Part shown: positions 1,979 to 63,801 of the stretch, one piece after another | How positions within the stretch are numbered: the stretch's first letter is position 1 | How the letters are laid out: each line of letters starts with the position of its first letter | Assembly (NCBI GenBank): GCA_040767925.1 | Contig: JAXGNN010000001.1 | Coordinates: 1,344,921 to 1,408,920, forward strand | DNA length: 64,000 bases | Source of the DNA: Christensenellales bacterium | GTDB taxonomy: Bacteria; Bacillota; Clostridia; Christensenellales; CAG-138 | Direction: 5' to 3' | Position numbers and translations under genes: made by a program | The notes under the pieces: generated by a model | Seen by the model: the letters and a program-made list of their open reading frames with translations, nothing else | What the model was told of the DNA's origin: nothing | Database searches by the model: none

Positions 1979-3220
1979 ATGGGAAGCAAAAGAGAATTTA
2001 CGCGAAGATCGGCGGCGCTTCTTCTGGCGCTGTGCCTGCTTCTTCTTGGCTCCGCGGCGCTTGCGGATATCGAGGCCGAGGCGGATCAAACGGGCGTGCA
2101 GGCCGGGGACGTCCTCGCCGTCACGCTGACCATCACGGGAAAGAACCTCTCGGTGGCGGAAGGGCTCTTTACCTACGACCCCGCGCTCCTCGCCTTCCAG
2201 GAGAGCGACGGAAGCGCGACGGACGGCTTCTTCACCCTCTACTCCGCCGAGAAGAACGGCTCCTCCACGTTGAGCGCGCGCGTCGTGTTCACGGCGCTCG
2301 CCGCGGGCGAGGCGAAAATCACATTCACGCTCGAGACCCTCCTCGACTACAAGGGCAAGGCGCTCGACACGGGCAGCGCGAGCGTCGCCGTCGCGATCGC
2401 CGCGGCTCCCGCCACACCTTCGCCGCCGCCCGTCGACTACGGCGACCCCGCGCGCAGCGTCAAGGCCGAAAACGTCGCCGGCGCGACGGGCGACATGTAC
2501 GTCTGGCGCAGCATCGAGAACGTGACCATCCCCTCGCGCTACGGCGAAGCGGACGTCGTCTACCGCGGCGAAACCGTGAAGGGCGCCGCCGTCAAGGACT
2601 CGGACGCGCCCACGCTCCTCTACCTCTCCGACGCGGCGGGGAACAGCGCGAGCTATTACATCTACGACGCCGAAAGGGACGCGCTCTACCCCTACCGCAC
2701 GATCTCCTCCGTGAGCAAATCCTACATCCTCCTCGAGCCGGACGGGAGCGTTTCCGCGCCCGAGGGCTTCGCGGAGACGACGTTGGAGCTCGACGGCGGC
2801 GCGGTGCGCGCCTGGGTCAGGGAGGACGCGCAGGGCAGCCTCTACCTGCTCTACGCGCGCAACCCCGACGGGGAGACCGGCTTCTACCTCTACAACCTGG
2901 AGGACGCGTCGCTGCAGCGCTTTGCGGTCTTGCCCGCGCGGCCGGCCGTGACGCCGCCCGCGAGCCCCGCGACCCCCGCGCCCGCGACGGAGCCCGTCCC
3001 GCAGGAAACGGCGTTCGTGAAAGACCCCGCGCCGGGAGAGATCGTCCTCCCCCGGGCGCTGTTCTACGCCGTATGCGGCGCGGCGGCGCTGTTCCTCGGC
3101 CTGTTTGTCGCGGGCATCGTCCTGCGCTCCGCGGAGGACGCGCGGCGCAGGAAACGCGCCGCCGAGCGCCGCAGGGCGCGGGAAAAAGCCGAGGAGGAGA
3201 CCCGGCAGATCAGTTCCTAA
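1979..3220 (+). CDS. Membrane-anchored surface protein with N-terminal cohesin-like module
   Basis: ORF 1745..3220. Start at ATG 1979 (AGGAGGGG overlapping the upstream stop) gives a signal peptide. The N-terminal module is beta-rich (GVQAGDVLAVTLTITGKNLSVAEGLFTYDPALLAF..AKITFTLETLLDYKG) and cohesin-like. Pro/Ala linkers follow, then a C-terminal TM helix ALFYAVCGAAALFLGLFVAGIVL and a charged tail. The CDS is firm; the cohesin call is tentative. Confidence 0.6.
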   Translation: MGSKREFTRRSAALLLALCLLLLGSAALADIEAEADQTGVQAGDVLAVTLTITGKNLSVAEGLFTYDPALLAFQESDGSATDGFFTLYSAEKNGSSTLSARVVFTALAAGEAKITFTLETLLDYKGKALDTGSASVAVAIAAAPATPSPPPVDYGDPARSVKAENVAGATGDMYVWRSIENVTIPSRYGEADVVYRGETVKGAAVKDSDAPTLLYLSDAAGNSASYYIYDAERDALYPYRTISSVSKSYILLEPDGSVSAPEGFAETTLELDGGAVRAWVREDAQGSLYLLYARNPDGETGFYLYNLEDASLQRFAVLPARPAVTPPASPATPAPATEPVPQETAFVKDPAPGEIVLPRALFYAVCGAAALFLGLFVAGIVLRSAEDARRRKRAAERRRAREKAEEETRQISS

Positions 3221-3894: not shown

Positions 3895-3977
3895 GGGCGG
3901 ATATGGAATCCGCCCCTGCAAAATCCCCGCCGAAGCGGCGTTCTTGATTTTCAATTATCCATTGTCAATTGTCAATT
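3895..3977 (-). repeat. Modular intergenic repeat, full copy (locus 1), abutting the noc stop
   Basis: On the + strand: GGGCGGAT-ATGGA-ATCCGCCC, CTGCAAAATCCC, CGCCG-AAG-CGGCG, TTCTTGATTTTCAATTATCCATTGTCAATTGTCAATT. The last heptamer overlaps the TAA of noc (3976-3978). Confidence 0.9.
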
Positions 3978-4815
3978 ACTTATGTCTCGTCACCCGGATG
4001 CTGATGTCCACGCCGTCCTCGCGGTCGGCCTGCTCGACCTCGACCACCATGCCGGATTCGCGCAGCGCCTTCACCGCGTCGTTGATGGTGTTCATGAAGA
4101 TGCGGTAGTCCCGCACGAGGCGGATGATCATGGGCCGGGGCTTCGCGCCGTCGGCTTTTTCATCGTAAAGGCGGTTGAGCGTCTTTTCGACGTACTGCTC
4201 GGTCTCCTTGACCGAAAGCCCCTTCTGGGCGATTTTGTCCACGAGCTCGAGGCGCGCGCGGTCGTCCGCGAGCTTCAGGAGCGCGCGGGCGTGGCGCTCC
4301 GTGAGGCGCGCGTCCACCATGGCGCTCTTCACGTCGTCCGAAAGCTTCAGAAGGCGCAGCTTGTTGGCGATGGAGGACTGGCTTTTGCCGAGCCGCTCCG
4401 CGAGCTGCTCCTGCGTGAGGTTGTAGGTTTCAAGCAGGGACGCGTAGCACTGCGCCTCCTCGAGGAAGTGCAGGTCCTCGCGCTGCAGGTTCTCGATGAG
4501 CGCCATGACCGCCGAGGTCTCGTCCATGATTTCCTGCTGGATGATGCAGCTCACCGTCTCCATCCCGAGGCTCGTCGCCGCGCGCAGGCGGCGCTCCCCC
4601 GCGACCAGCTCGTACTCGTCGCCCACCCGCCTGACGAGCAAAGGCTGCAGCAGGCCCACCTGCCGGATGGACTGCGCGAGCTCCGCGATGCTCTCCTCGT
4701 CGAAGGTTGTCCGGGGTTGATAGGGGTTCGGGCGGATCTTTGCGACGGGCAGCTCCACGAGCAGCTTGACTGCCTCGGGGCTCCTGTTTTCCTTTAAGAA
4801 GTCGAATACGGGCAT
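3976..4815 (-). CDS. noc: Nucleoid occlusion protein Noc (ParB-family paralogue)
   Basis: ParB N-terminal box LLQPLLVRRVGDEYELVAGERRLRAA, HTH QEQLAERLGKSQSSIANKLRLLKL, and a Noc-type C-terminus RDYRIFMNTINDAVKAL. Sits directly downstream of rsmG as in Bacillus. GGGAGGA RBS. Confidence 0.85.
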   Translation of the reverse strand: MPVFDFLKENRSPEAVKLLVELPVAKIRPNPYQPRTTFDEESIAELAQSIRQVGLLQPLLVRRVGDEYELVAGERRLRAATSLGMETVSCIIQQEIMDETSAVMALIENLQREDLHFLEEAQCYASLLETYNLTQEQLAERLGKSQSSIANKLRLLKLSDDVKSAMVDARLTERHARALLKLADDRARLELVDKIAQKGLSVKETEQYVEKTLNRLYDEKADGAKPRPMIIRLVRDYRIFMNTINDAVKALRESGMVVEVEQADREDGVDISIRVTRHK

Positions 4816-4923
4816 ATGTGCGTCCTCCCTGATTGCGTGTTCTCCAACGGCCGTGATATTCCTGCCCTGCGGCGATATTCGCGCTTTTTCCCGAAAAGAA
4901 GTGATTTTCTTTTTCCGCGGCGC

Positions 4924-5610
4924 TCACAGGGGATTTTTCGCGGCGGCTCCCGCCTTTCGCGGATATTCCTTCGGCGTGGGCGCAAGCTTTTTCGCCTCGA
5001 TCACATGGCGCTCGCCCCACGGAACTTCAAATTTGAGCGTCTGCGCCTCGAGGCGCAGAATCTTCGCGGCGCGCGCGGCCGACGCGAGTTCCTCGTCCGC
5101 CTTCGGCCCTTTGTACATGAGGGAAACGCCGCCTGTTTTCAGGAGGGGCGCCGTCCACTCCATCAGGGCGGACGCTCCCGCGACCGCGCGCGTGAGGGCA
5201 ACGTCGTATTGCCCGCGGTGCGCGGGGTCCCGCCCCGCGTCCTCCGCCCGCGCGTGCACGAGCGCCGCCTGAAGGTTCAATTCCTCCAGCAGGGCCTTTA
5301 GGAAAACGAGGCGCTTATTGAGCGAGTCGAGCAGCGTCATCGAGAGGTCGCCCCGCATGATGAGCAGGGGCACGCCCGGGAAGCCCGCGCCCGTGCCCAC
5401 GTCGATGCAGCGCGCGCCCTCTTTGACGCGCGCCACGGGCAAAAGGCTGTCCGCGAAGTGCTTGGCGACAACTTCCTCCGCGCCCGTGATGGCGGTGAGG
5501 TTCATCCTTTCGTTCCAGGCGGCGAGCAGCGTGAAGTAGCGCGCGAATTTTCCAATTTGCGCCCCGTCCGCCTCCGGTATGTATCGATGGATCAGGCCTT
5601 CTATCTCCAT
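4924..5610 (-). CDS. rsmG: 16S rRNA (guanine527-N7)-methyltransferase RsmG/GidB
   Basis: WNERMNLTAI, KHFADSL, DVGTGAGFPGVPL motifs. Synteny mnmG-rsmG-noc. Confidence 0.93.
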   Translation of the reverse strand: MEIEGLIHRYIPEADGAQIGKFARYFTLLAAWNERMNLTAITGAEEVVAKHFADSLLPVARVKEGARCIDVGTGAGFPGVPLLIMRGDLSMTLLDSLNKRLVFLKALLEELNLQAALVHARAEDAGRDPAHRGQYDVALTRAVAGASALMEWTAPLLKTGGVSLMYKGPKADEELASAARAAKILRLEAQTLKFEVPWGERHVIEAKKLAPTPKEYPRKAGAAAKNPL

Positions 5611-5668
5611 TTCGTCAATTCCGCATTTCCTATATTGTTTTTCGGGGAAGGGACGCCGGCGGTTTCGC

Positions 5669-5689
5669 GGGCGGATATGGAATCCGCCC
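5669..5689 (-). repeat. Solo hairpin module of the repeat family (locus 2)
   Basis: GGGCGGAT-ATGGA-ATCCGCCC. Confidence 0.85.
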
Positions 5690-5841
5690 TGCTGTCCCCG
5701 ACAAGGCGGAGAGAGGCGTCCTTAAGGGTTCCGGGAACGGTCCCACCCTTTCCCCTTCCTTCATCGCCCCATGCAGCGTTCTGTACGGCGCGCCCACATC
5801 GCCCTCCTGCCCGCGGAACCGTCCCCGGGCGCGGATTCCCT

Positions 5842-5955
5842 CCCGCGGCGGCGTTCCCCGATTGTCAATTGTCAATTCTCAATTGTCAATTTCCCCTTCC
5901 CGCCCGCGGCGGCGTTCCCCGATTGTCAATTGTCAATTCTCAATTGTCATTTTCC
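5842..5955 (-). repeat. Two tandem 61-bp copies of the heptamer module (subfamily 2), overlapping the mnmG 3' end
   Basis: CCGCGGCGGCGTTCCCCGATTGTCAATTGTCAATTCTCAATTGTCA occurs twice (period 61: 5860 and 5921). Confidence 0.9.
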
Positions 5956-7819
5956 TCAAGTAAATCGTCAGCACCGCGATGTCCGAAGGCGACACGCCCG
6001 AGATGCGCCCCGCGCGGCCGAGGCTCTCGGGCTTCCTTGCCGCGAGCTTCTGGCGCGCCTCAAGGCGCAAGCCTTCCATCGCCATGTAGTCGAGGTCCGG
6101 GGGGAGGGGGGTGTCCTCCAGCTCGCGAAAGCGGCCGACGAGCGCCTTCTCCTTCTCGATGTAGCCCTCGTAGCGCGCGTCGAGCGTGACGGCCTCCGCC
6201 GCCTCGCGGCCGATGTTCGGCAGAAGATCCGGATAGAGCGCGAGGAGGTCCGTGTAGCCGACGCCGCGCCTTCGAAGCAGATCGAACAGCCTGACGCCCG
6301 AGGCGGGCGCGGACTCGCCCCGCGCCTCGAGCAGCCGCCGCAGCGCCTCCCCGGGCGCGACGGACGCGCCGAGCGCGGCCTTCGCCCGGGCGGCCTCCTC
6401 CCGCTTTCGCATCAGGCGGGAATAGCGCTCGTCGGAAACAAGCCCCGTCCGCCTGGAAAGCTCGGTCAGCCGCTCGTCCGCGTTGTCCTGCCGGAGCAGC
6501 AGCCGGTATTCCGCGCGGGAGGTCATCATCCGGTAGGGTTCGTTGGTGCCTTTGCCCGTGAGGTCGTCGCACAGCACGCCGATGTACGCGTCCGCGCGCG
6601 AGAGGAGAAGGGGCGGCTCGCCCCGAAGGTACAGGGCGGCGTTGATCCCCGCGTAAAGCCCCTGCGCCGCGGCCTCCTCATAGCCGGAGCTGCCGTTGAT
6701 CTGCCCCGCGAAGTAAAGGCCCTCTATCTCGCGGGAACGAAGCGCAGCGTCGAGCGCCGTGGGGTCGATGCAGTCGTACTCGATGGCGTAGCCGTAGCGC
6801 GTGACCTGGCAACGTTCAAGCCCTGGTATCGTATGGAGCATGTCCCTCTGCACGTCGGCGGGGAGCGAGGTGCTCATGCCCTGCACGTATTTCTCGTCGG
6901 TCGAGCGCCCTTCCGGCTCGATGAAGAGCTGGTGGCGCTCCTTGTCGGCGAAACGGGTGATCTTATCCTCGATGGAGGGGCAGTAGCGCGTGCCCGTCGC
7001 GCGGATGAGGCCGGAGTACATGGCGCTGCGCGCGATATTCGCGCGGATGACCGCGTGGGTCGCCTCGTTCGTATAGGTGAGGTAGCACGGGACCTGCTCC
7101 CGTTCAAGCTCCCCCGTGAGGAAGGAGAAGCGCGGCTGCGGCTCGTCCCCGAACTGCGGCTCCATTTTTGCATAATCGAGCGTGCGGCCGAGCACGCGCG
7201 CAGGCGTGCCCGTCTTGAAGCGGCGAAGCGCGAAGCCGATCTTTGCGAGCGCCGCGGAAAGCCCTTCCGCGCGCATCAGGCCGGAGGGCCCGCTCTCCCA
7301 TACGCAATCGCCGATGAGCACGCGGCTCTTTAAATACACGCCCGTCGCGACGACGACGGCGCGGCAGGGGATCCTCTCCCCCGCGCTCTTCATGCCGCCC
7401 GAGAGGCGTATGCCGATGACGCGGCCGTTTTCCACGTCGATATGGGCGCACTCGCCCTGCATCAGGGTCAGGCGCTCCTCGGTTTCGAGCGCGCGCTTCA
7501 TGCGCGCGTGATATTCCCGCTTGTCGATCTGCGCGCGAAGGGAGTGCACGGCGGGGCCCTTGCCCGTGTTGAGCATGCGCACCTGAAGGCAGGTGTCGTC
7601 CGCGGCGAGGCCCATCTCGCCGCCGAGCGCGTCGATTTCGCGCACGAGGTGCCCCTTCGACGTGCCGCCCACCGAGGGGTTGCACGCCATGAGGGCGACC
7701 GCGTCGAGGTTGAGCGTCAGGCACAGCGCAGTAAGCCCCATGCGCGATGCGGCAAGCGCGGCCTCAAGCCCTGCGTGCCCTGCTCCCAGTATCGCGATGT
7801 CGTATCCCGTTTCCGCCAC
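5933..7819 (-). CDS. mnmG: tRNA uridine-5-carboxymethylaminomethyl modification enzyme MnmG/GidA
   Basis: GTG start with GGAGGG RBS. FAD motif YDIAILGAGHAGLEAA; CNPSVGG, GQINGSSGYEEAAAQG. The last 5 codons (MTIEN) and the TGA lie inside the repeat. Confidence 0.95.
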   Translation of the reverse strand: MAETGYDIAILGAGHAGLEAALAASRMGLTALCLTLNLDAVALMACNPSVGGTSKGHLVREIDALGGEMGLAADDTCLQVRMLNTGKGPAVHSLRAQIDKREYHARMKRALETEERLTLMQGECAHIDVENGRVIGIRLSGGMKSAGERIPCRAVVVATGVYLKSRVLIGDCVWESGPSGLMRAEGLSAALAKIGFALRRFKTGTPARVLGRTLDYAKMEPQFGDEPQPRFSFLTGELEREQVPCYLTYTNEATHAVIRANIARSAMYSGLIRATGTRYCPSIEDKITRFADKERHQLFIEPEGRSTDEKYVQGMSTSLPADVQRDMLHTIPGLERCQVTRYGYAIEYDCIDPTALDAALRSREIEGLYFAGQINGSSGYEEAAAQGLYAGINAALYLRGEPPLLLSRADAYIGVLCDDLTGKGTNEPYRMMTSRAEYRLLLRQDNADERLTELSRRTGLVSDERYSRLMRKREEAARAKAALGASVAPGEALRRLLEARGESAPASGVRLFDLLRRRGVGYTDLLALYPDLLPNIGREAAEAVTLDARYEGYIEKEKALVGRFRELEDTPLPPDLDYMAMEGLRLEARQKLAARKPESLGRAGRISGVSPSDIAVLTIYLRKMTIEN

Positions 7820-54041: not shown

Positions 54042-54061
54042 AAGGGCGAACGGAATACCGC

Positions 54062-54144
54062 CCGCTGGGGGAGCCGACGCGCATGCGTTCGTGCTGAGAG
54101 ATACCCTTGGAACCTGTCCGGGTAATGCCGACGAAGGGAAGCGG
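54062..54144 (+). promoter_or_regulatory. TPP (THI-box) riboswitch aptamer
   Basis: CCGCT-GGGGAGC..GCTGAGAGATACCCTTGGAACCTGTCCGGGTAATGCCGACGAAGGGA-AGCGG. Matches the conserved CUGAGA, ACCUGAUCYGGRUAAUGCC and GGGA blocks, with a P1 closing helix. Confidence 0.88.
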
Positions 54145-54182
54145 AGGACAAATACATCAAACCGCCTTCGGCGTTTGACTGT

Positions 54183-54987: not shown

Positions 54988-56178
54988 ATGAGGAAAAACG
55001 CGAACATCGTGTCGGACGAAGCGGAGCGGCTTGAGCGGGAGGAACGGCGCACGCAGGGCCGCCGTCGCGCGTTGCTCTATGCCTTCGCGCTGCTGATGGG
55101 GGGCGCCATCGCCGGCGCCTATTTCGCGCGCGGCGCGAGCTTCGCGCCCGTCTGGGCGCTCGCGACGCCCGCTCCCTCCCCCTCTCCCTCCGCCATGCCC
55201 GCATCCTCGCCCTCCCCGGGGGCGGCAAAGGACACGCCGGGCCCTTCGCCGGACGATACGAAGCCATTCTCCCCGACGGCCATCTATGTGGACGGGGCGC
55301 TCGCGGGCGTCATCGCCAGCCGGGAGGCCGCCGAGGCGCTGCTGGCCGACGTTTCCTCTTACTTCCAGATGAAGGTGGACGGCATCGGCGTCCTTGTGAC
55401 GAGCGTCGAGAGCGAGATCGAGTTGAAGGACGCGCCGCCCGACGAAATTGCCGGGCTTTCCACCTACGAGTCGCTCTTCGCGCGCTTCACGGCGGAGGAC
55501 ACGCCCCTTACCGTCGTCACTTTGCTCAGCTCGGAGAGCTTTTCCTCTGTTTCATGCGAAACAAAAACGGGAACCACAAAATATCTCCTCCGGGGCACGC
55601 GGCTCATCGCCAGCATGGGGCGGGACGGCAGCACGCACACGGTGAGCGTTTCCCGCTACGTCAACGGCAGGCCCGACGGCAAGCCGGAGGAGGTGAGCGC
55701 GAGCGTCGTCGCGCCGGTCGACGCCGTCGTATTCGAGGGGACGAAAGCCGTCGATAAAGACGCGGAACCCGGCAAAAGCGAGGGGCAGAAAGGCCCGGAC
55801 GCGGGAGAACTTTCCTTCATACGGCCTGCGCGCGGTGCGGACATTGTGGTGAACTTCGGGCAGTACCGCGGCGTGCTGCACCTCGGCCTCGATTTCGGCG
55901 TCGCCGCGGGCGATCCGGTGCTCGCCTCGTGCGCGGGGGTCGTCGTCTGCGCGATGGAGCGCGGCGGCTACGGATTGATGATCGAGATCGACCACGGAAA
56001 CGGCTTCGTCACGCGCTACGCGCACCTTCAGAGCGCCGCGGTGGATCTCGGGCAGACGGTTGCCCAGGGGGACGTGATCGGCGCGGCGGGCATGAGCGGC
56101 AACTGCAAAAATCCCGTGCTGCATTTTGAACTCCGCGTCGACGGCATCGCCTACAACCCGCGCTTTTATCTCGATTGA
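54988..56178 (+). CDS. Membrane-anchored M23 (LytM) peptidase
   Basis: N-terminal TM ALLYAFALLMGGAIAGAYF, Pro/Ser/Ala linker. Catalytic HLGLDF .. GYGLMIEIDHGNGFVTRYAHL .. PVLHFELR. Confidence 0.88.
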   Translation: MRKNANIVSDEAERLEREERRTQGRRRALLYAFALLMGGAIAGAYFARGASFAPVWALATPAPSPSPSAMPASSPSPGAAKDTPGPSPDDTKPFSPTAIYVDGALAGVIASREAAEALLADVSSYFQMKVDGIGVLVTSVESEIELKDAPPDEIAGLSTYESLFARFTAEDTPLTVVTLLSSESFSSVSCETKTGTTKYLLRGTRLIASMGRDGSTHTVSVSRYVNGRPDGKPEEVSASVVAPVDAVVFEGTKAVDKDAEPGKSEGQKGPDAGELSFIRPARGADIVVNFGQYRGVLHLGLDFGVAAGDPVLASCAGVVVCAMERGGYGLMIEIDHGNGFVTRYAHLQSAAVDLGQTVAQGDVIGAAGMSGNCKNPVLHFELRVDGIAYNPRFYLD

Positions 56179-57804: not shown

Positions 57805-58257
57805 ATGCAGATCCTGTCCGTCCGCAAAGCTCCCGGGCGCGCCGAAGAATTCGTCGCGTATTTTCAGAAGCGCTGGGCGAGCGAAAAAGGCAAGCCGGTC
57901 TATGAGGACTGCATCAAGAACTGCCTCACTTCCCCGTCCCCCCTGCCGCAGTGGTACCTGCTTTTTGAAAACGGCAGGATCGCAGGCTGCGCGGGGCTGA
58001 TCCCCAACGATTTTATCAGCCGGATGGACCTCTGGCCGTGGCTGTGCGCGCTGTATGTCGAGGAGGATTGCCGCGGGCGCGGCCTCGGCGCGCTTCTCAT
58101 AGAGCGCTGCAAGCAGGATGCGAAGAAGCTCGGCTTTCCCGCGCTCTACCTCTGCACGGATCACATCGGCTATTACGAGCGGTATGGCTTTGAATACTTG
58201 GCCCAAGGCTATCATCCCTGGGGCGAGAGCTCGAGGATATACGAAGTACAAGTATAA
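57805..58257 (+). CDS. GNAT-family N-acetyltransferase
   Basis: LYVEEDCRGRGLGALLIERC .. YYERYGFEY. Confidence 0.78.
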   Translation: MQILSVRKAPGRAEEFVAYFQKRWASEKGKPVYEDCIKNCLTSPSPLPQWYLLFENGRIAGCAGLIPNDFISRMDLWPWLCALYVEEDCRGRGLGALLIERCKQDAKKLGFPALYLCTDHIGYYERYGFEYLAQGYHPWGESSRIYEVQV

Positions 58258-58274
58258 TGCAGGTTTATGGGAAA

Positions 58275-58301
58275 ACCGCGCGGCCGATATAACCGCGCGG
58301 T
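58275..58301. terminator. Bidirectional terminator between the GNAT gene and parB
   Basis: ACCGCGCGG-CCGATATAA-CCGCGCGGT with an A-run before and GTTT after. Confidence 0.6.
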
Positions 58302-58327
58302 CGTTTCATGTCAAATTGTGGGGAATC

Positions 58328-59206
58328 CTATTCCGCCGCCCCCTGCATCAATATTTCATACAGCCATTCGAGGTTTTCCCGCGTGTAATACTCGATGGTG
58401 ATCCTGCCGCGCTTCTCGGTGCCTTCTATGGAAACCTTGGTGCCCAATTGCTCGCGCAGTTTCTCCTGCGCGGCGAACATGTCTCCCGTCTGCTTCGGGC
58501 GCTTTTCGGGCTTCTCCTCCCGCGCGTTGGGGAAAAGCTCCGCGTTGTTGACGGACGCGGCCTTGTTCTCCACCTCGCGCACCGACCAGCCGAACTTCAC
58601 GGCGTCGGTCGCGAGCGTTTTTTGCCTGTTCTCATCCCTGACGCCCGCGATGGCGCGCGCGTGGCCGGAGGAAAGCTCCCCCTCGCGCACGAGCTTCTGC
58701 ACGTCCTCCGGCAGGTTCAAGAGGCGCAGCGCGTTGGCGATGACCGGGCGGGATTTTCCCAAGCGCTGCGAGACCTCCTCCTGCGTGAGGTCGTGCTGGA
58801 GCATCAAAAACCGGATCGCCGCCGCCTCCTCGATGGGGTTCAGGTTCTCGCGCTGGAGGTTTTCCACGAGCGCCACCTCGTGCACCTCGGCGTCGTCGAA
58901 CTCCTTAACGATGACGGGCACCTTCTGCATCCCGGCGAGCCTCGCCGCGCGGTAGCGCCGCTCGCCCGCGACGATGCTGTACCGCTCGCCGACGCGCCGG
59001 ACGATGATCGGCTGTACCATGCCGTGCCGCTCGATGCTCGAGGCGAGCTCGCGCAGCCTTTCCTCGTCGAACGTCTTTCGCGGCTGCTCCGCGTTGGTGT
59101 CGATGAGGTAAATATCCGCCTGCACGACGCCCTCGGGCGGCTCCGTCGAAAAGTCCCCCAAAAGCGCGTCCAGCCCCCGGCCGAGTCCCTTCTTGTTCAC
59201 AGCCAT
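58328..59206 (-). CDS. parB: Chromosome partitioning protein ParB/Spo0J
   Basis: GLGRGLDALL, QPRKTFDEE, VQPIIVRR..YSIVAGERRYRAA, HTH QEEVSQRLGKSRPVIANALRLLNL. TAATG overlap with parA. Confidence 0.95.
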   Translation of the reverse strand: MAVNKKGLGRGLDALLGDFSTEPPEGVVQADIYLIDTNAEQPRKTFDEERLRELASSIERHGMVQPIIVRRVGERYSIVAGERRYRAARLAGMQKVPVIVKEFDDAEVHEVALVENLQRENLNPIEEAAAIRFLMLQHDLTQEEVSQRLGKSRPVIANALRLLNLPEDVQKLVREGELSSGHARAIAGVRDENRQKTLATDAVKFGWSVREVENKAASVNNAELFPNAREEKPEKRPKQTGDMFAAQEKLREQLGTKVSIEGTEKRGRITIEYYTRENLEWLYEILMQGAAE

Positions 59207-59979
59207 TACGCCTTCCCTCCGTCGTTCGCGATGACCTCTTCCGCAAGCGCCTGATAGGCCTTCGCGCCGACGCAGCGCGGGTCATACTGGTTGATGGGCA
59301 GCCCGAAGCTCGGCGCCTCCCCGAGGCGGATCGAGCGCGGGATGATGGTCCTGTATACTTTATTCTTGAAGAACTTCTTGACCTCGAGCACCACCTGCTC
59401 GGAGAGGTTCGTGCGCGCGTCGAACATGGTGAGCACCACGCCTTCCACGTCGAGCATGGGATTGAGGTGCGTGCGCACGAGCTTCACCGTGTTCATCAGA
59501 TCCGAAAGGCCCTCGAGCGCATAGTATTCGCACTGGATGGGGGCGAGCAGCGTGTCCGCCGCGGTCAGGGCGTTCACCGTCAGAAGCCCGAGCGAGGGCG
59601 GGCAGTCGATGAAGATGAAGTCGTATTCCTCGCGCAGCGGCGCGAGCGCGCGCTTTAAGACCGTTTCCCGGGCGAGCGCGCTCACGAGCTCCACCTCCGC
59701 GCCGGAAAGCTCCTTCCTCGAGCAAAGCAGGTCCAGGTTGTCCGCCACGGTCTTCACGATGGCGTCCTTCGCCGGGACGCCGTTGATGAGCACGTCGTAA
59801 ACGCTGTGCTCCGGCTCGTCCTTGTTGACGCCCACGCCCGTCGTCGAATTGCCCTGCGGGTCGATGTCCACGCAGAGCACCTTTTTGCCCTTCTCCGCGA
59901 TGCAGGCGGAGAGGTTCACGGTCGTCGTCGTCTTGCCCACGCCGCCCTTCTGGTTGGCGACGGCTATCACTCTTGCCAT
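59206..59979 (-). CDS. parA: Chromosome partitioning ATPase ParA/Soj
   Basis: Start at ATG 59979 (GGAGG 7 nt upstream). Deviant Walker A NQKGGVGKTTT, IFIDCPPSLG. Confidence 0.95.
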   Translation of the reverse strand: MARVIAVANQKGGVGKTTTTVNLSACIAEKGKKVLCVDIDPQGNSTTGVGVNKDEPEHSVYDVLINGVPAKDAIVKTVADNLDLLCSRKELSGAEVELVSALARETVLKRALAPLREEYDFIFIDCPPSLGLLTVNALTAADTLLAPIQCEYYALEGLSDLMNTVKLVRTHLNPMLDVEGVVLTMFDARTNLSEQVVLEVKKFFKNKVYRTIIPRSIRLGEAPSFGLPINQYDPRCVGAKAYQALAEEVIANDGGKA

Positions 59980-59993
59980 CGTTTTCCTCCGAA

Positions 59994-60527
59994 TCAAAGA
60001 TAGAGATCCATCATGATCTCGTCGTGGTAGGCCCCGCCCACGAAAAAGCGTCCCTTATGCCTGCCGACCTCCTCGAAGCCGAAGCGCCTGTAGAGCGCCC
60101 GCGCCCGCGCGTTGTCGGCGTATACGCCAAGCTCGATGGTCTTGACCCCCTGCTCCCTTGCGAGCGCGATCAGCGTTTCCATGATGGCGCTCCCCACGCC
60201 GATGCCCCAGAACTTCCTCTGCACGGCCACGGCGATTTCCGCCACGTGCTTGAGGCGCTCCCGCCCGTAGCAGGAGATGTTACACGTGCAGGCGATCTCC
60301 CCGTCGATGCGGCCGGCGAAGAAGCCGCCGCGCGGCGCTTTCTTGTAGTTCTCCATCACTTCCGCTTCCTGCTCGACGGTATAGGGCAGCCCGGTCGCGT
60401 CGAAAAGCAGGAAATCCGTCTCCCCGCCGACGATCTTCAGGTATTCCAGCAGCTCCGCGGCATCCTCTTTGCCCGGGCGGTACAGGCGCAGCGTGCGGCC
60501 GTCCTTTAACACAACGTTGCGTTCCAT
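59994..60527 (-). CDS. GNAT-family N-acetyltransferase, first gene of the parAB operon
   Basis: Start at ATG 60527 (GGAGG RBS, downstream of the predicted promoter). VAVQRKFWGIGVGSAIME .. ALYRRFGFEEVG. Confidence 0.8.
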   Translation of the reverse strand: MERNVVLKDGRTLRLYRPGKEDAAELLEYLKIVGGETDFLLFDATGLPYTVEQEAEVMENYKKAPRGGFFAGRIDGEIACTCNISCYGRERLKHVAEIAVAVQRKFWGIGVGSAIMETLIALAREQGVKTIELGVYADNARARALYRRFGFEEVGRHKGRFFVGGAYHDEIMMDLYL

Positions 60528-60555
60528 GTTTCCTCCATTTGTCATTTCCTGTGTC

Positions 60556-60584
60556 ATTATACTGTATGGGGCGCTCAAAAACAA
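60556..60584 (-). promoter_or_regulatory. Candidate promoter of GNAT-parA-parB
   Basis: Minus strand: TTGTTT (60584-60579), 17 nt, TATAAT (60561-60556). The -35 lies 5 nt from parS-1. Confidence 0.45.
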
Positions 60585-60589
60585 TGCAT

Positions 60590-60605
60590 TGTTTCACATG
60601 AAACA
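60590..60605. promoter_or_regulatory. parS site 1 (one mismatch from the palindrome)
   Basis: TGTTTCACATGAAACA vs Firmicute consensus TGTTNCACGTGAAACA. Confidence 0.8.
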
Positions 60606-60626
60606 TCCGCGCCGCGCTTGAAGCGA

Positions 60627-60642
60627 TGTTTCACGTGAAACA
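60627..60642. promoter_or_regulatory. parS site 2 (perfect palindrome)
   Basis: TGTTTCACGTGAAACA. Confidence 0.9.
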
Positions 60643-60666
60643 TCCGCAATGCGCTCCGAAGAACAT

Positions 60667-60682
60667 TGTTTCACGTGAAACA
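60667..60682. promoter_or_regulatory. parS site 3 (perfect palindrome)
   Basis: TGTTTCACGTGAAACA. Confidence 0.9.
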
Positions 60683-60709
60683 AGCCTCGCTTTCCCCTTC
60701 TTTCCCGTC

Positions 60710-60723
60710 ATTGCCCGGGAAAT
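60710..60723. promoter_or_regulatory. Noc-binding-site-like palindrome
   Basis: ATTGCCCGGGAAAT: 13/14 match to the B. subtilis NBS core ATTTCCCGGGAAAT. Confidence 0.45.
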
Positions 60724-60898
60724 TGACAGGATTCGCCCTCCGCGCGGCGGGTTATTGCCCCTCATTCTCGGCCGCGCGGCCTAAAACGAAAAAGCGTCGC
60801 GTCTGGGCGGCGTTCATAGAACCGGACGCACCGGAAACGTTGGAGACTCCGTCCCCAGGCCCTTGGAACCCATATGCGGCCATGTGTACAGGATAAGC

Positions 60899-60925
60899 AG
60901 AAGCGCCGCATTCCGCGGCGCTTCT
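60899..60925 (-). terminator. Hairpin immediately after jag
   Basis: AGAAGCGCCGC-ATTCC-GCGGCGCTTCT (11-bp stem). No clear U tract. Confidence 0.5.
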
Positions 60926-60938
60926 GTGGAGATTGTCT

Positions 60939-61892
60939 TTATTTCGCTGCCCCGTTCTTGTCATCCCTGCCCTTCGGGGCGACGACCACGCGGCGGTTGG
61001 GCTCCTCGCCCTCGCTGTAGGTCGTAACGTACGGGTGGCTCTGGAGCGTGGCGTGCATCACGCGCCTCTCGTAGGGGTTCATCGGCTCCATCGTACGGGA
61101 GCGCCCGGTGCTCCTGACCTGCGAGGCGACCTTGCGCGCGAGGCGGACGAGGGTCTCCTCGCGCTTGTCGCGATACCCTTCCGTGTCGATGGTGACGCGC
61201 GTGTAACCCGTTTCCTTGCGCGCGCGGTTGACGTGCAGCGAGGCGAGGTACTGGATGGCGTCGAGCGTTTCCCCCCTGTGGCCGATGAGGATGCCCATGG
61301 CGGCGCTGTCGATGCGAAGCCGGATGCCCTCCTCGGAGACGTTGGCGAGCACCGTGGCGTCGATGCCCATAAGACCGAGCATGCCTTTCAGGAACTCCGC
61401 TGCCGCGTTGCCCTCCGCGGCGTCGAGCGAGTAGTCGATCTTGGGCCTTTCGGGCGCCGGGGCATAGTCCTCCCTGCGGCGCGGCCTCTCGGCCTCGTGG
61501 CGGTCGTCGCGCCGCCCGTCGCGGGGGGGCCTGTTCCCCTCGCGCCTCTGCGGCGGGCGCGGGCCCTGGCCCTGCGGCCTCTGGCTCTGGTCCTGCTGCG
61601 GGCGCGGCCGGTCGTCCCGGCGCGGGGGCCGCGCGGGCCGCTCGCTGCGGGGGCCGCTGCGCTCGCCCGGGCGCATGCGCTCGGCGTCGGTCAGGTATTC
61701 GGGAATCACGATCTGCTCGGGTTCGCGCTCGATGAGCCGCACGATGGCGGGCCGCGCGCCGATGCCGAGCACGCCCTTTGTTTCATGCTGCACGATATCG
61801 ATCTCAACTTCGTCGATGGAAAGATCCAACTCGTGCAGGCCGTTGAAAATGGCCTCGTCTATGGTCTTGCCTATGGCTTCGAACGTTCTCAT
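60939..61892 (-). CDS. jag: RNA-binding protein Jag/KhpB (Jag_N + KH + R3H)
   Basis: Start at ATG 61892 (ATGA overlap with the yidC stop). MRTFEAIGKTIDEAI.., Arg/Pro/Asp-rich linker, KH (IGHRGETLDAIQYL), R3H (MNPYERRVMH). Confidence 0.9.
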   Translation of the reverse strand: MRTFEAIGKTIDEAIFNGLHELDLSIDEVEIDIVQHETKGVLGIGARPAIVRLIEREPEQIVIPEYLTDAERMRPGERSGPRSERPARPPRRDDRPRPQQDQSQRPQGQGPRPPQRREGNRPPRDGRRDDRHEAERPRRREDYAPAPERPKIDYSLDAAEGNAAAEFLKGMLGLMGIDATVLANVSEEGIRLRIDSAAMGILIGHRGETLDAIQYLASLHVNRARKETGYTRVTIDTEGYRDKREETLVRLARKVASQVRSTGRSRTMEPMNPYERRVMHATLQSHPYVTTYSEGEEPNRRVVVAPKGRDDKNGAAK

Positions 61893-63666: not shown

Positions 63667-63801
63667 TCAGGCGGATATGGTCTTGCGGCCCTTGAGCCTT
63701 CTGCGGGCGAGCACCTTGCGGCCGTTGCGGGTCTTCATGCGCTGGCGGAACCCGTGGACCTTGCTGCGCTGCCTCTTCTTGGGTTGATACGTACCGAGCA
63801 T
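63667..63801 (-). CDS. rpmH: 50S ribosomal protein L34
   Basis: Not in the ORF track (44 aa). Hand translation: [44 protein letters not shown]. Confidence 0.95.

Follow-up and report, generated by a model that had tools for sequence, protein, structure and literature searches.

What is the role of three copies of the ParB-binding site parS that lie directly upstream of the operon for ParA and ParB, and what is a GNAT-type N-acetyltransferase gene doing at the head of this operon? Both questions are raised by a locus of an uncultured Christensenellales bacterium, contained in a stretch of 64 kb of DNA which was analysed as a whole and is referred to as "the window". We consider it likely that the sites form an origin-proximal ParB loading array, i.e., a chromosomal centromere, that it probably also exerts negative feedback on its own operon, and that the GNAT gene is most likely a passenger.

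The parS Array and the GNAT-parA-parB Operon

The array consists of 16-bp palindromes fitting the parS consensus TGTTNCACGTGAAACA, to which no strand is assigned. The promoter-proximal site, parS1 (60590–60605; TGTTTCACATGAAACA, on the minus strand TGTTTCATGTGAAACA), carries one central mismatch and covers approximately −56 to −41, followed by parS2 (60627–60642; ~−93 to −78) and the promoter-distal parS3 (60667–60682; ~−133 to −118), both of which have the perfect consensus sequence TGTTTCACGTGAAACA; all positions relative to the transcription start site (TSS) assume that the TSS lies ~7 nt after the −10 hexamer. All three were located by consensus search and reading, and parS3 aligns with a parS in the relative L001. 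In the 64 kb window, five matches were obtained at three or fewer mismatches, versus 0.06 expected from shuffles, and the two matches outside the array are degenerate, with two (55548) and three (30571) mismatches, respectively. The original prediction of three tandem parS sites is, thus, borne out by the reading of both strands at 59700–61000 and the consensus search, as are their start-to-start intervals of 37 and 40 bp. The flank ATCCGC, which all repeated units had been claimed to share, adjoins sites 1 and 2, whereas at site 3 AGCCTC comes next. Open reading frames translated as "MFHVK" in this region are artefacts of (A)TGTTTCACGTGAAACA being translated in frame.

The first gene of the operon (59994–60527, minus strand) encodes a GNAT N-acetyltransferase of 177 aa (Pfam Acetyltransf_1, 2.7e-18), the start of which is the ATG at 60527. 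An upstream TTG of the long open reading frame was rejected as start codon; the 177-aa protein starting with ATG is identical to the database protein P0001. Next is parA/soj (59206–59979, minus strand; 257 aa; Pfam AAA_31, 1.4e-70, and CbiA), the product of which has the deviant Walker A motif KGGVGKT near the N-terminus and lacks an N-terminal DNA-binding domain, as expected for a chromosomal ParABS system. The third gene, parB/spo0J (58328–59206, minus strand; 292 aa), encodes a protein with the Pfam domains ParB_N, HTH_ParB and ParB_C, containing the N-terminal ParA-stimulating peptide LGRGLDALL, the CTPase motif GERRYR, the helix-turn-helix and the C-terminal dimerisation domain. The genes are tightly packed; the distance between the GNAT stop codon (59994–59996) and the start codon of parA (59979) is, as had been stated, 14 nt, and parB begins within the parA stop codon, with 1 nt in common.

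An assignment of the ParB protein as Noc was rejected; it scores 234 bits with the Noc model, below the cut-off of 315, passes the parB_part model, and a true noc paralogue, scoring 325.7 bits with the Noc model, is found elsewhere in the window (3976–4815). Convergent with parB, there is a second, unrelated GNAT gene (57805–58257, plus strand; 150 aa), which occupies the same place in the relative with 76% GNAT identity, but is not present in the other GNAT-parAB loci.

Further binding-site-like sequences were observed in the neighbourhood. The degenerate parS-like site TGTTTCATGCGAAACA (55548–55563; no strand assigned) is situated within an M23 peptidase gene. In the relative, the orthologous codons (V-S/P-C-E-T) hold a better parS, TGTTCCATGTGAAACA (L001, 10472–10487; L139, 18549–18564); the copy in the window is decayed, having been weakened by a synonymous TGT-to-TGC change. 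At 60710–60723, 28 bp from parS3, the palindrome ATTGCCCGGGAAAT differs by one mismatch from ATTTCCCGGGAAAT, which we take to be the Noc-binding-site consensus of B. subtilis; at two or fewer mismatches, 0.14 matches of this kind are expected per window. This palindrome is not conserved beside the array of the 76%-identical relative.

Promoter and Intergenic Region

Between parS1 and the GNAT gene, the minus strand carries the −35 hexamer TTGTTT (60579–60584) and, after a 17-nt spacer, the −10 hexamer TATAAT (60556–60561); a ribosome-binding site of the GNAT gene, GGAGG (60532–60536, minus strand), was recognised by sequence reading. Site 1 had been proposed to end 5 bp from the −35 of a TTGTTT-17-TATAAT promoter, and precisely this spacing (ATGCA) is found on the minus strand. 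An automated promoter scan of positions 58000–61200 called no promoter, which is accounted for by the −35 fitting TTGACA at only 3/6 positions, whereas the −10 is perfect. The promoter was retained because an alignment of six GNAT-parAB upstream regions has as its invariant columns the proximal parS, TTGT, TATAAT and the 17-nt spacer between these two. It is a predicted sigma-A-type promoter and the sole recognisable one of the GNAT-parA-parB operon. A perfect 16-bp palindrome, AAACAATGCATTGTTT (60579–60594), extends from the final 5 bases of parS1 across the entire −35. The arrangement ACAAT..ATTGT is seen again in relatives, which is a hint that the −35 may derive from a parS half-site.

On the distal side, a 12-bp GC-rich hairpin (60898–60926, minus strand) directly follows the jag stop codon and is a probable terminator between the jag operon and the region of parS sites and promoter; a matching hairpin with a T-run is present in L001. 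No RNA family was found in the intergenic region, neither at the Rfam gathering threshold in a search of the whole window nor at E ≤ 1 for positions 60480–60960, and, the terminator hairpin aside, the 256-nt spacer between jag and the parS sites folds no better than shuffles (z = −1.48).

A TPP riboswitch (54057–54156, plus strand; 57.2 bits) was detected elsewhere in the window. In relatives, the gene of a thiamine transporter (thiT/YuaJ) adjoins the M23 peptidase-Zn-ribbon-murA block, and further clade members have thiT directly upstream of the parS-GNAT-parAB module.

Position Relative to the Replication Origin

Upstream of the array and on the same strand as the operon, the genes jag, yidC, yidD, rnpA and rpmH (63667–63801) are found; the window ends ~200 bp past rpmH, and dnaA lies beyond its end. 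The closest relative found is "Firmicutes bacterium ADurb.Bin248", whose GNAT, ParA and ParB are 76%, 89% and 79% identical, respectively, to those of the window. Its gene order is dnaN-dnaA followed by the divergent rpmH-rnpA-yidD-yidC-jag-[3 parS]-GNAT-parA-parB, with a DnaA box in the dnaA-rpmH spacer. The array lies ~3 kb from rpmH and, according to the gene order of this syntenic relative, therefore also from oriC. The assumption that the locus is a neighbour of oriC, hence, agrees with rnpA and rpmH in the window and with dnaA being divergent from rpmH in the relative. DnaA boxes are no commoner than chance in the 64 kb window, consistent with oriC being situated past the window end. Named relatives of the ParB protein come from Clostridia, Christensenellales and Christensenellaceae metagenome-assembled genomes (MAGs).

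In Firmicutes, the usual run of genes is jag-mnmE-mnmG-rsmG-noc-soj-spo0J. Here, noc, rsmG and mnmG (3976–7819) are on the same strand as parA-parB at a distance of 53 kb, which implies that this run has been split and that soj-spo0J has moved to directly after jag.

Conservation within the Order Christensenellales

Homologues of the GNAT protein were traced into their contigs, and their flanks and upstream parS sites were read. Those with 76% identity (L001, L129, L138–140) are located on the jag side of oriC in a window-like context with three parS. At 69% and 66% identity (L135, L136), the operon is divergent from recF-gyrB-gyrA and preceded by one parS, 17–18 bp from the −35; at 59% identity (L003, L004), it follows thiT, with one parS 16 bp from the −35; and at 56% identity (L127, L128), it also follows thiT, with rearranged flanks and one parS 4 bp from the −35. 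Homologues with 54% identity or less (L005, L126, L137) have tatD next to them, are preceded by metG in L005 and L126, and have no parS. In a metagenome scan, six loci with the GNAT gene were obtained.

The GNAT-parA-parB triad is intact in all linked loci, comprising four flanking contexts and GNAT identities of 56–76%, with GNAT-parA junctions of 14 nt, 4 nt or overlapping reading frames, except for L135, where a 176-bp gap is present. Conservation of the GNAT-parA adjacency, with which the original prediction was to stand or fall, is thus confirmed across these four contexts, but confined to one sub-clade, the sister lineages being without the GNAT gene.

parS1 is the sole site of the array that is conserved in every GNAT-parAB locus. 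In nine related loci, with or without GNAT, the proximal parS is kept 4–24 bp from the −35. Sister Christensenellales without GNAT (ParB 61–67% identical) have one parS 11–24 bp upstream of TTGTGT-17-TATAAT, directly before parA; in one of these sisters, a window-like promoter is accompanied by a parS that is reduced to a decayed half-site. Since parS and promoter are combined in the GNAT-less sisters, too, parS-promoter-parAB is the ancestral arrangement of the order. Judging from this distribution, the GNAT gene was most likely inserted between the ancestral promoter and parA in one sub-clade, and the comparison of upstream regions indicates that a single parS expanded into an array of three in the lineage of the window and the 76%-identical relative. 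Between these two, the parS sites are identical at 43/48 positions (90%) and the spacers at only 15/45 (33%), from which it follows that all three sites are under selection. Within 20 kb across oriC of this relative, the parS-like sites are the array and the one in the M23 peptidase gene, with no others.

In L141, an abundant GNAT-less member of the Christensenellales, the single parS upstream of parA is contained in a longer hairpin with a T-run after it (3047–3085), AGAAGGTA-parS-TACCTTCTTTTTTT; there, the centromere also provides the CoA-transferase genes upstream of it with a terminator-like structure.

Tandem parS Arrays in Other Bacteria and Comparison with Known Systems

When 185,579 species, each represented by one genome, were scanned, at least 120 loci with three parS-like 16-mers 10–40 nt apart were recorded, and those listed belong to many phyla. 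The array is located within 400 bp upstream of parA, in the same orientation, in 66 of these 120 listed loci (at least 66 species-level genomes). About 42 of the 120 have one uniform array, in which the spacing is 39/39 bp and parA follows 79 bp downstream, and those of them that were checked are Collinsella with the order jag-3xparS-parA-parB; other arrays listed belong to Lachnospiraceae, Oscillospiraceae, Ruminococcus, other Eubacteriales, Peptococcaceae, Acidobacteria and others. The listed loci have spacings of 34–50 bp, with peaks at 37–39 and 45–48 bp, which makes the 37/40 bp of the window typical. In the remaining 54 of the 120 listed loci the array is not next to parA, although some of these are truncated at a locus end. 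When different phyla are compared, the proximal parS and the −35 are ~0 to 80 bp apart. The view that a triple tandem cluster on a parAB promoter is unusual has, therefore, to be abandoned, given that at least 66 genomes from several phyla share this layout. Beginning the operon with a GNAT gene is, in contrast, as unusual as had been supposed, this gene being absent both from the 120 array loci listed and from the sister lineages. Larger tandem arrays were also seen, with 8–10 parS in 1–2 kb and sometimes in the form of repeated triplets (L021, L019, L046, L032, L039, L111), in genomes of Parcubacteria, uncultured Bacilli, Lachnospiraceae and Bacteroidia.

The closest counterparts of the locus are the jag-[3 x parS]-parA-parB arrays of Collinsella, Lachnospiraceae, Oscillospiraceae, Ruminococcus and Acidobacteria, which comprise 3–8 parS at 34–50 bp spacing, 50–300 bp upstream of parA, in the same orientation and often directly after jag, but, among the loci listed, never include a GNAT gene. 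A literature search yielded no experimental study of these arrays. With the Soj-Spo0J/parS system of B. subtilis, the locus shares the consensus TGTTNCACGTGAAACA, the domain make-up of ParA and ParB, the origin-proximal position by rnpA-yidC-jag and a separate Noc. It differs from it in having three parS on the operon promoter, parAB at 53 kb from noc-rsmG-mnmG and a GNAT gene before parA, whereas B. subtilis has 8–10 dispersed single parS and an operon that is reported not to be autoregulated (PMC4010829, PMC2346475).

S. coelicolor parAB and mycobacterial gidB-parAB resemble the locus in having parS at or near the par promoter, with ParB being proposed or reported as its own repressor (PMC4010829, PMC2346475). 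These systems are, however, actinobacterial, have other promoter types and contain sites that overlap the −10 or are scattered; S. coelicolor has 20 or more parS and no tight triple array upstream of a −35. In KorB-OB of plasmid RK2 and parS3/parS4 of P. aeruginosa, a CTP clamp of the ParB family lowers transcription from a promoter-adjacent palindrome (PMC11790492, PMC7022226), but KorB is a plasmid global regulator that needs the clamp-locking partner KorA, and parS3/parS4 control neighbouring genes instead of parAB. ScPat/ScCobB1 of S. coelicolor is comparable insofar as a GNAT-family enzyme modifies ParB and alters parS binding (PMC7229854); ScPat is, however, a large Pat-type protein that is encoded elsewhere, and the Lys-183 which it targets is replaced in the ParB of the window.

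Probable Centromere Function and Proposed Feedback on the Operon

The sequences themselves show what the sites are, how they are arranged, conserved and under selection, how close they lie to the origin and the promoter, and how tightly the operon is packed. How the locus would work, including whether ParB binds and spreads here and which way it regulates, can be derived from established ParB biology. ParB/Spo0J dimers, encoded 1.4 kb away, would nucleate on parS and, upon binding CTP, form closed clamps that slide onto the flanks, and the partition complex built in this way would be the substrate for ParA/Soj and probably for SMC. Three sites 37–40 bp apart would each load a dimer independently and, thereby, raise the loading rate. 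Occupancy by ParB, together with clamps sliding through the promoter, would probably damp the transcription of GNAT-parA-parB, and this damping would constitute a negative feedback that keeps ParA and ParB levels steady.

As to this negative feedback on GNAT-parA-parB, we lean cautiously towards its existence, because parS1 occupies the UP-element/alpha-CTD zone, because clamps would have to cross the promoter, and because there are precedents. A ParB site abuts the promoter of its own operon, a feature of par operons that are autoregulated through a centromere/operator there, such as S. coelicolor parAB, type Ib plasmids and KorB class I operators. In P. aeruginosa, the promoters adjacent to parS3/parS4 are repressed by ParB (PMC7022226); S. 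coelicolor parAB is reported to be autorepressed by ParB, as cited in PMC4010829; in mycobacteria, parS overlaps the gidB promoter (PMC2346475); and on plasmid RK2 the CTP clamp KorB acts as a repressor (PMC11790492).

Opposed to this stands a tentative, less probable explanation, according to which the array is a centromere and SMC-loading site only, with its nearness to the promoter resulting from a cis-linked parS-parAB cassette and scarce intergenic DNA near oriC, and with ParB clamps and RNA polymerase passing or displacing one another. Autoregulation of parAB is absent in B. subtilis and on V. cholerae chromosome I, and few genes are silenced where ParB spreads (PMC4010829), leaving most genes under it unaffected (PMC4010829, PMC7022226), so that occupancy by ParB need not mean repression. 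The 54 of the 120 listed loci whose arrays are not next to parA, some of them truncated at a locus end, point in the same direction, as does the variable parS-to-−35 distance across phyla (~0–80 bp), which argues against one strict operator geometry. Within the order, however, the proximal site has been kept 4–24 bp from the −35 through rearrangements and the insertion of the GNAT gene, and a dimer bound at a site which, 5 bp from the −35, fills the UP-element/alpha-CTD zone would hardly be neutral. The reverse effect, namely that ParB at parS1 activates or insulates the promoter by replacing a weak −35/UP element or by blocking read-through and clamps from the jag side, is very improbable. 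Activators use a zone near −48, into which the centre of parS1 falls, and the combination of a poor −35 (3/6) with a perfect −10 would suit a promoter that needs such help, but canonical ParB has, to our knowledge, no contact surface for RNA polymerase. While the ParB-like CTP clamp BisD activates promoters (PMC12409273), the effects of chromosomal ParB at adjacent promoters that were found in the literature are repressive (PMC7022226, PMC4010829). A centromere with probable damping of its own operon is, thus, the reading that we prefer.

The GNAT Gene: Probable Passenger or Possible Third Component

Among NCBIfam models, the best scores of the GNAT protein relative to the respective cut-offs are 54/170 (ArsN1a), 49/236 (PRK10140), 47.5/86.4 (RimI) and 29.7/460 (Pat), so that neither an equivalog nor a characterised protein acetyltransferase reaches its cut-off; the best PDB match, 2i79, is a GNAT-family acetyltransferase whose entry bears no specific name. 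By its sequence, the protein is a generic, small stand-alone enzyme matching no characterised family. We regard the gene as most likely a passenger, which would be retained in the sub-clade because parAB depends on the promoter upstream of it. The survival of the triad through four rearrangements fits a functional tie and is equally compatible with this dependence of parAB on the promoter.

It is, in contrast, unlikely that the GNAT protein takes part in partition as a functional third member of the system and, expressed from a ParB-controlled promoter, acetylates ParA or ParB to tune ATPase stimulation or DNA binding, with the lysines of the N-terminal ParB peptide MAVNKKGLGRGL or the N-terminus as candidate targets. 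The intact triad in four flanking contexts at 56–76% GNAT identity and the tight junctions (14 nt, 4 nt or overlapping) would agree with such a role, and acetylation of ParB lowers parS binding in S. coelicolor (PMC7229854). Modification of the K183 type was, however, rejected for the ParB of the window, in which LRLLNL replaces the LRLLKL of S. coelicolor (PMC7229854), the equivalent of the lysine being Asn. Further points against a third component are the lack of any characterised protein acetyltransferase model reaching its cut-off, the absence of the gene from the sister lineages and from the 120 array-bearing genomes listed, the location of homologues with 54% identity or less between metG and tatD, and the 176-bp GNAT-parA gap in L135; moreover, the linkage is explicable by the dependence of parAB on the shared promoter. 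The farthest-reaching version, in which GNAT is a dedicated component made in fixed ratio with ParA and ParB and acetylating one of them and, separately, the promoter-proximal arrays are signs of a widespread feedback loop through which ParB controls chromosomal ParA and ParB levels, is doubtful to a similar degree.

Implications

The control of chromosomal ParA and ParB levels in bacteria is still described as unresolved (PMC13371061). For many non-model lineages, our survey points to a different picture, with tandem parS found repeatedly just ahead of parA in gut Actinobacteria, many Clostridia, Acidobacteria and others. The layout is a common but little-studied architecture; at the present locus, the GNAT gene within the operon is the only unusual element. 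The insertion of this gene is a small, clade-restricted oddity that would matter only if the enzyme acts on ParA or ParB. As a clear example with a well-defined sigma-A-type promoter, the locus may lend itself to testing whether ParB exerts feedback on chromosomal parAB.
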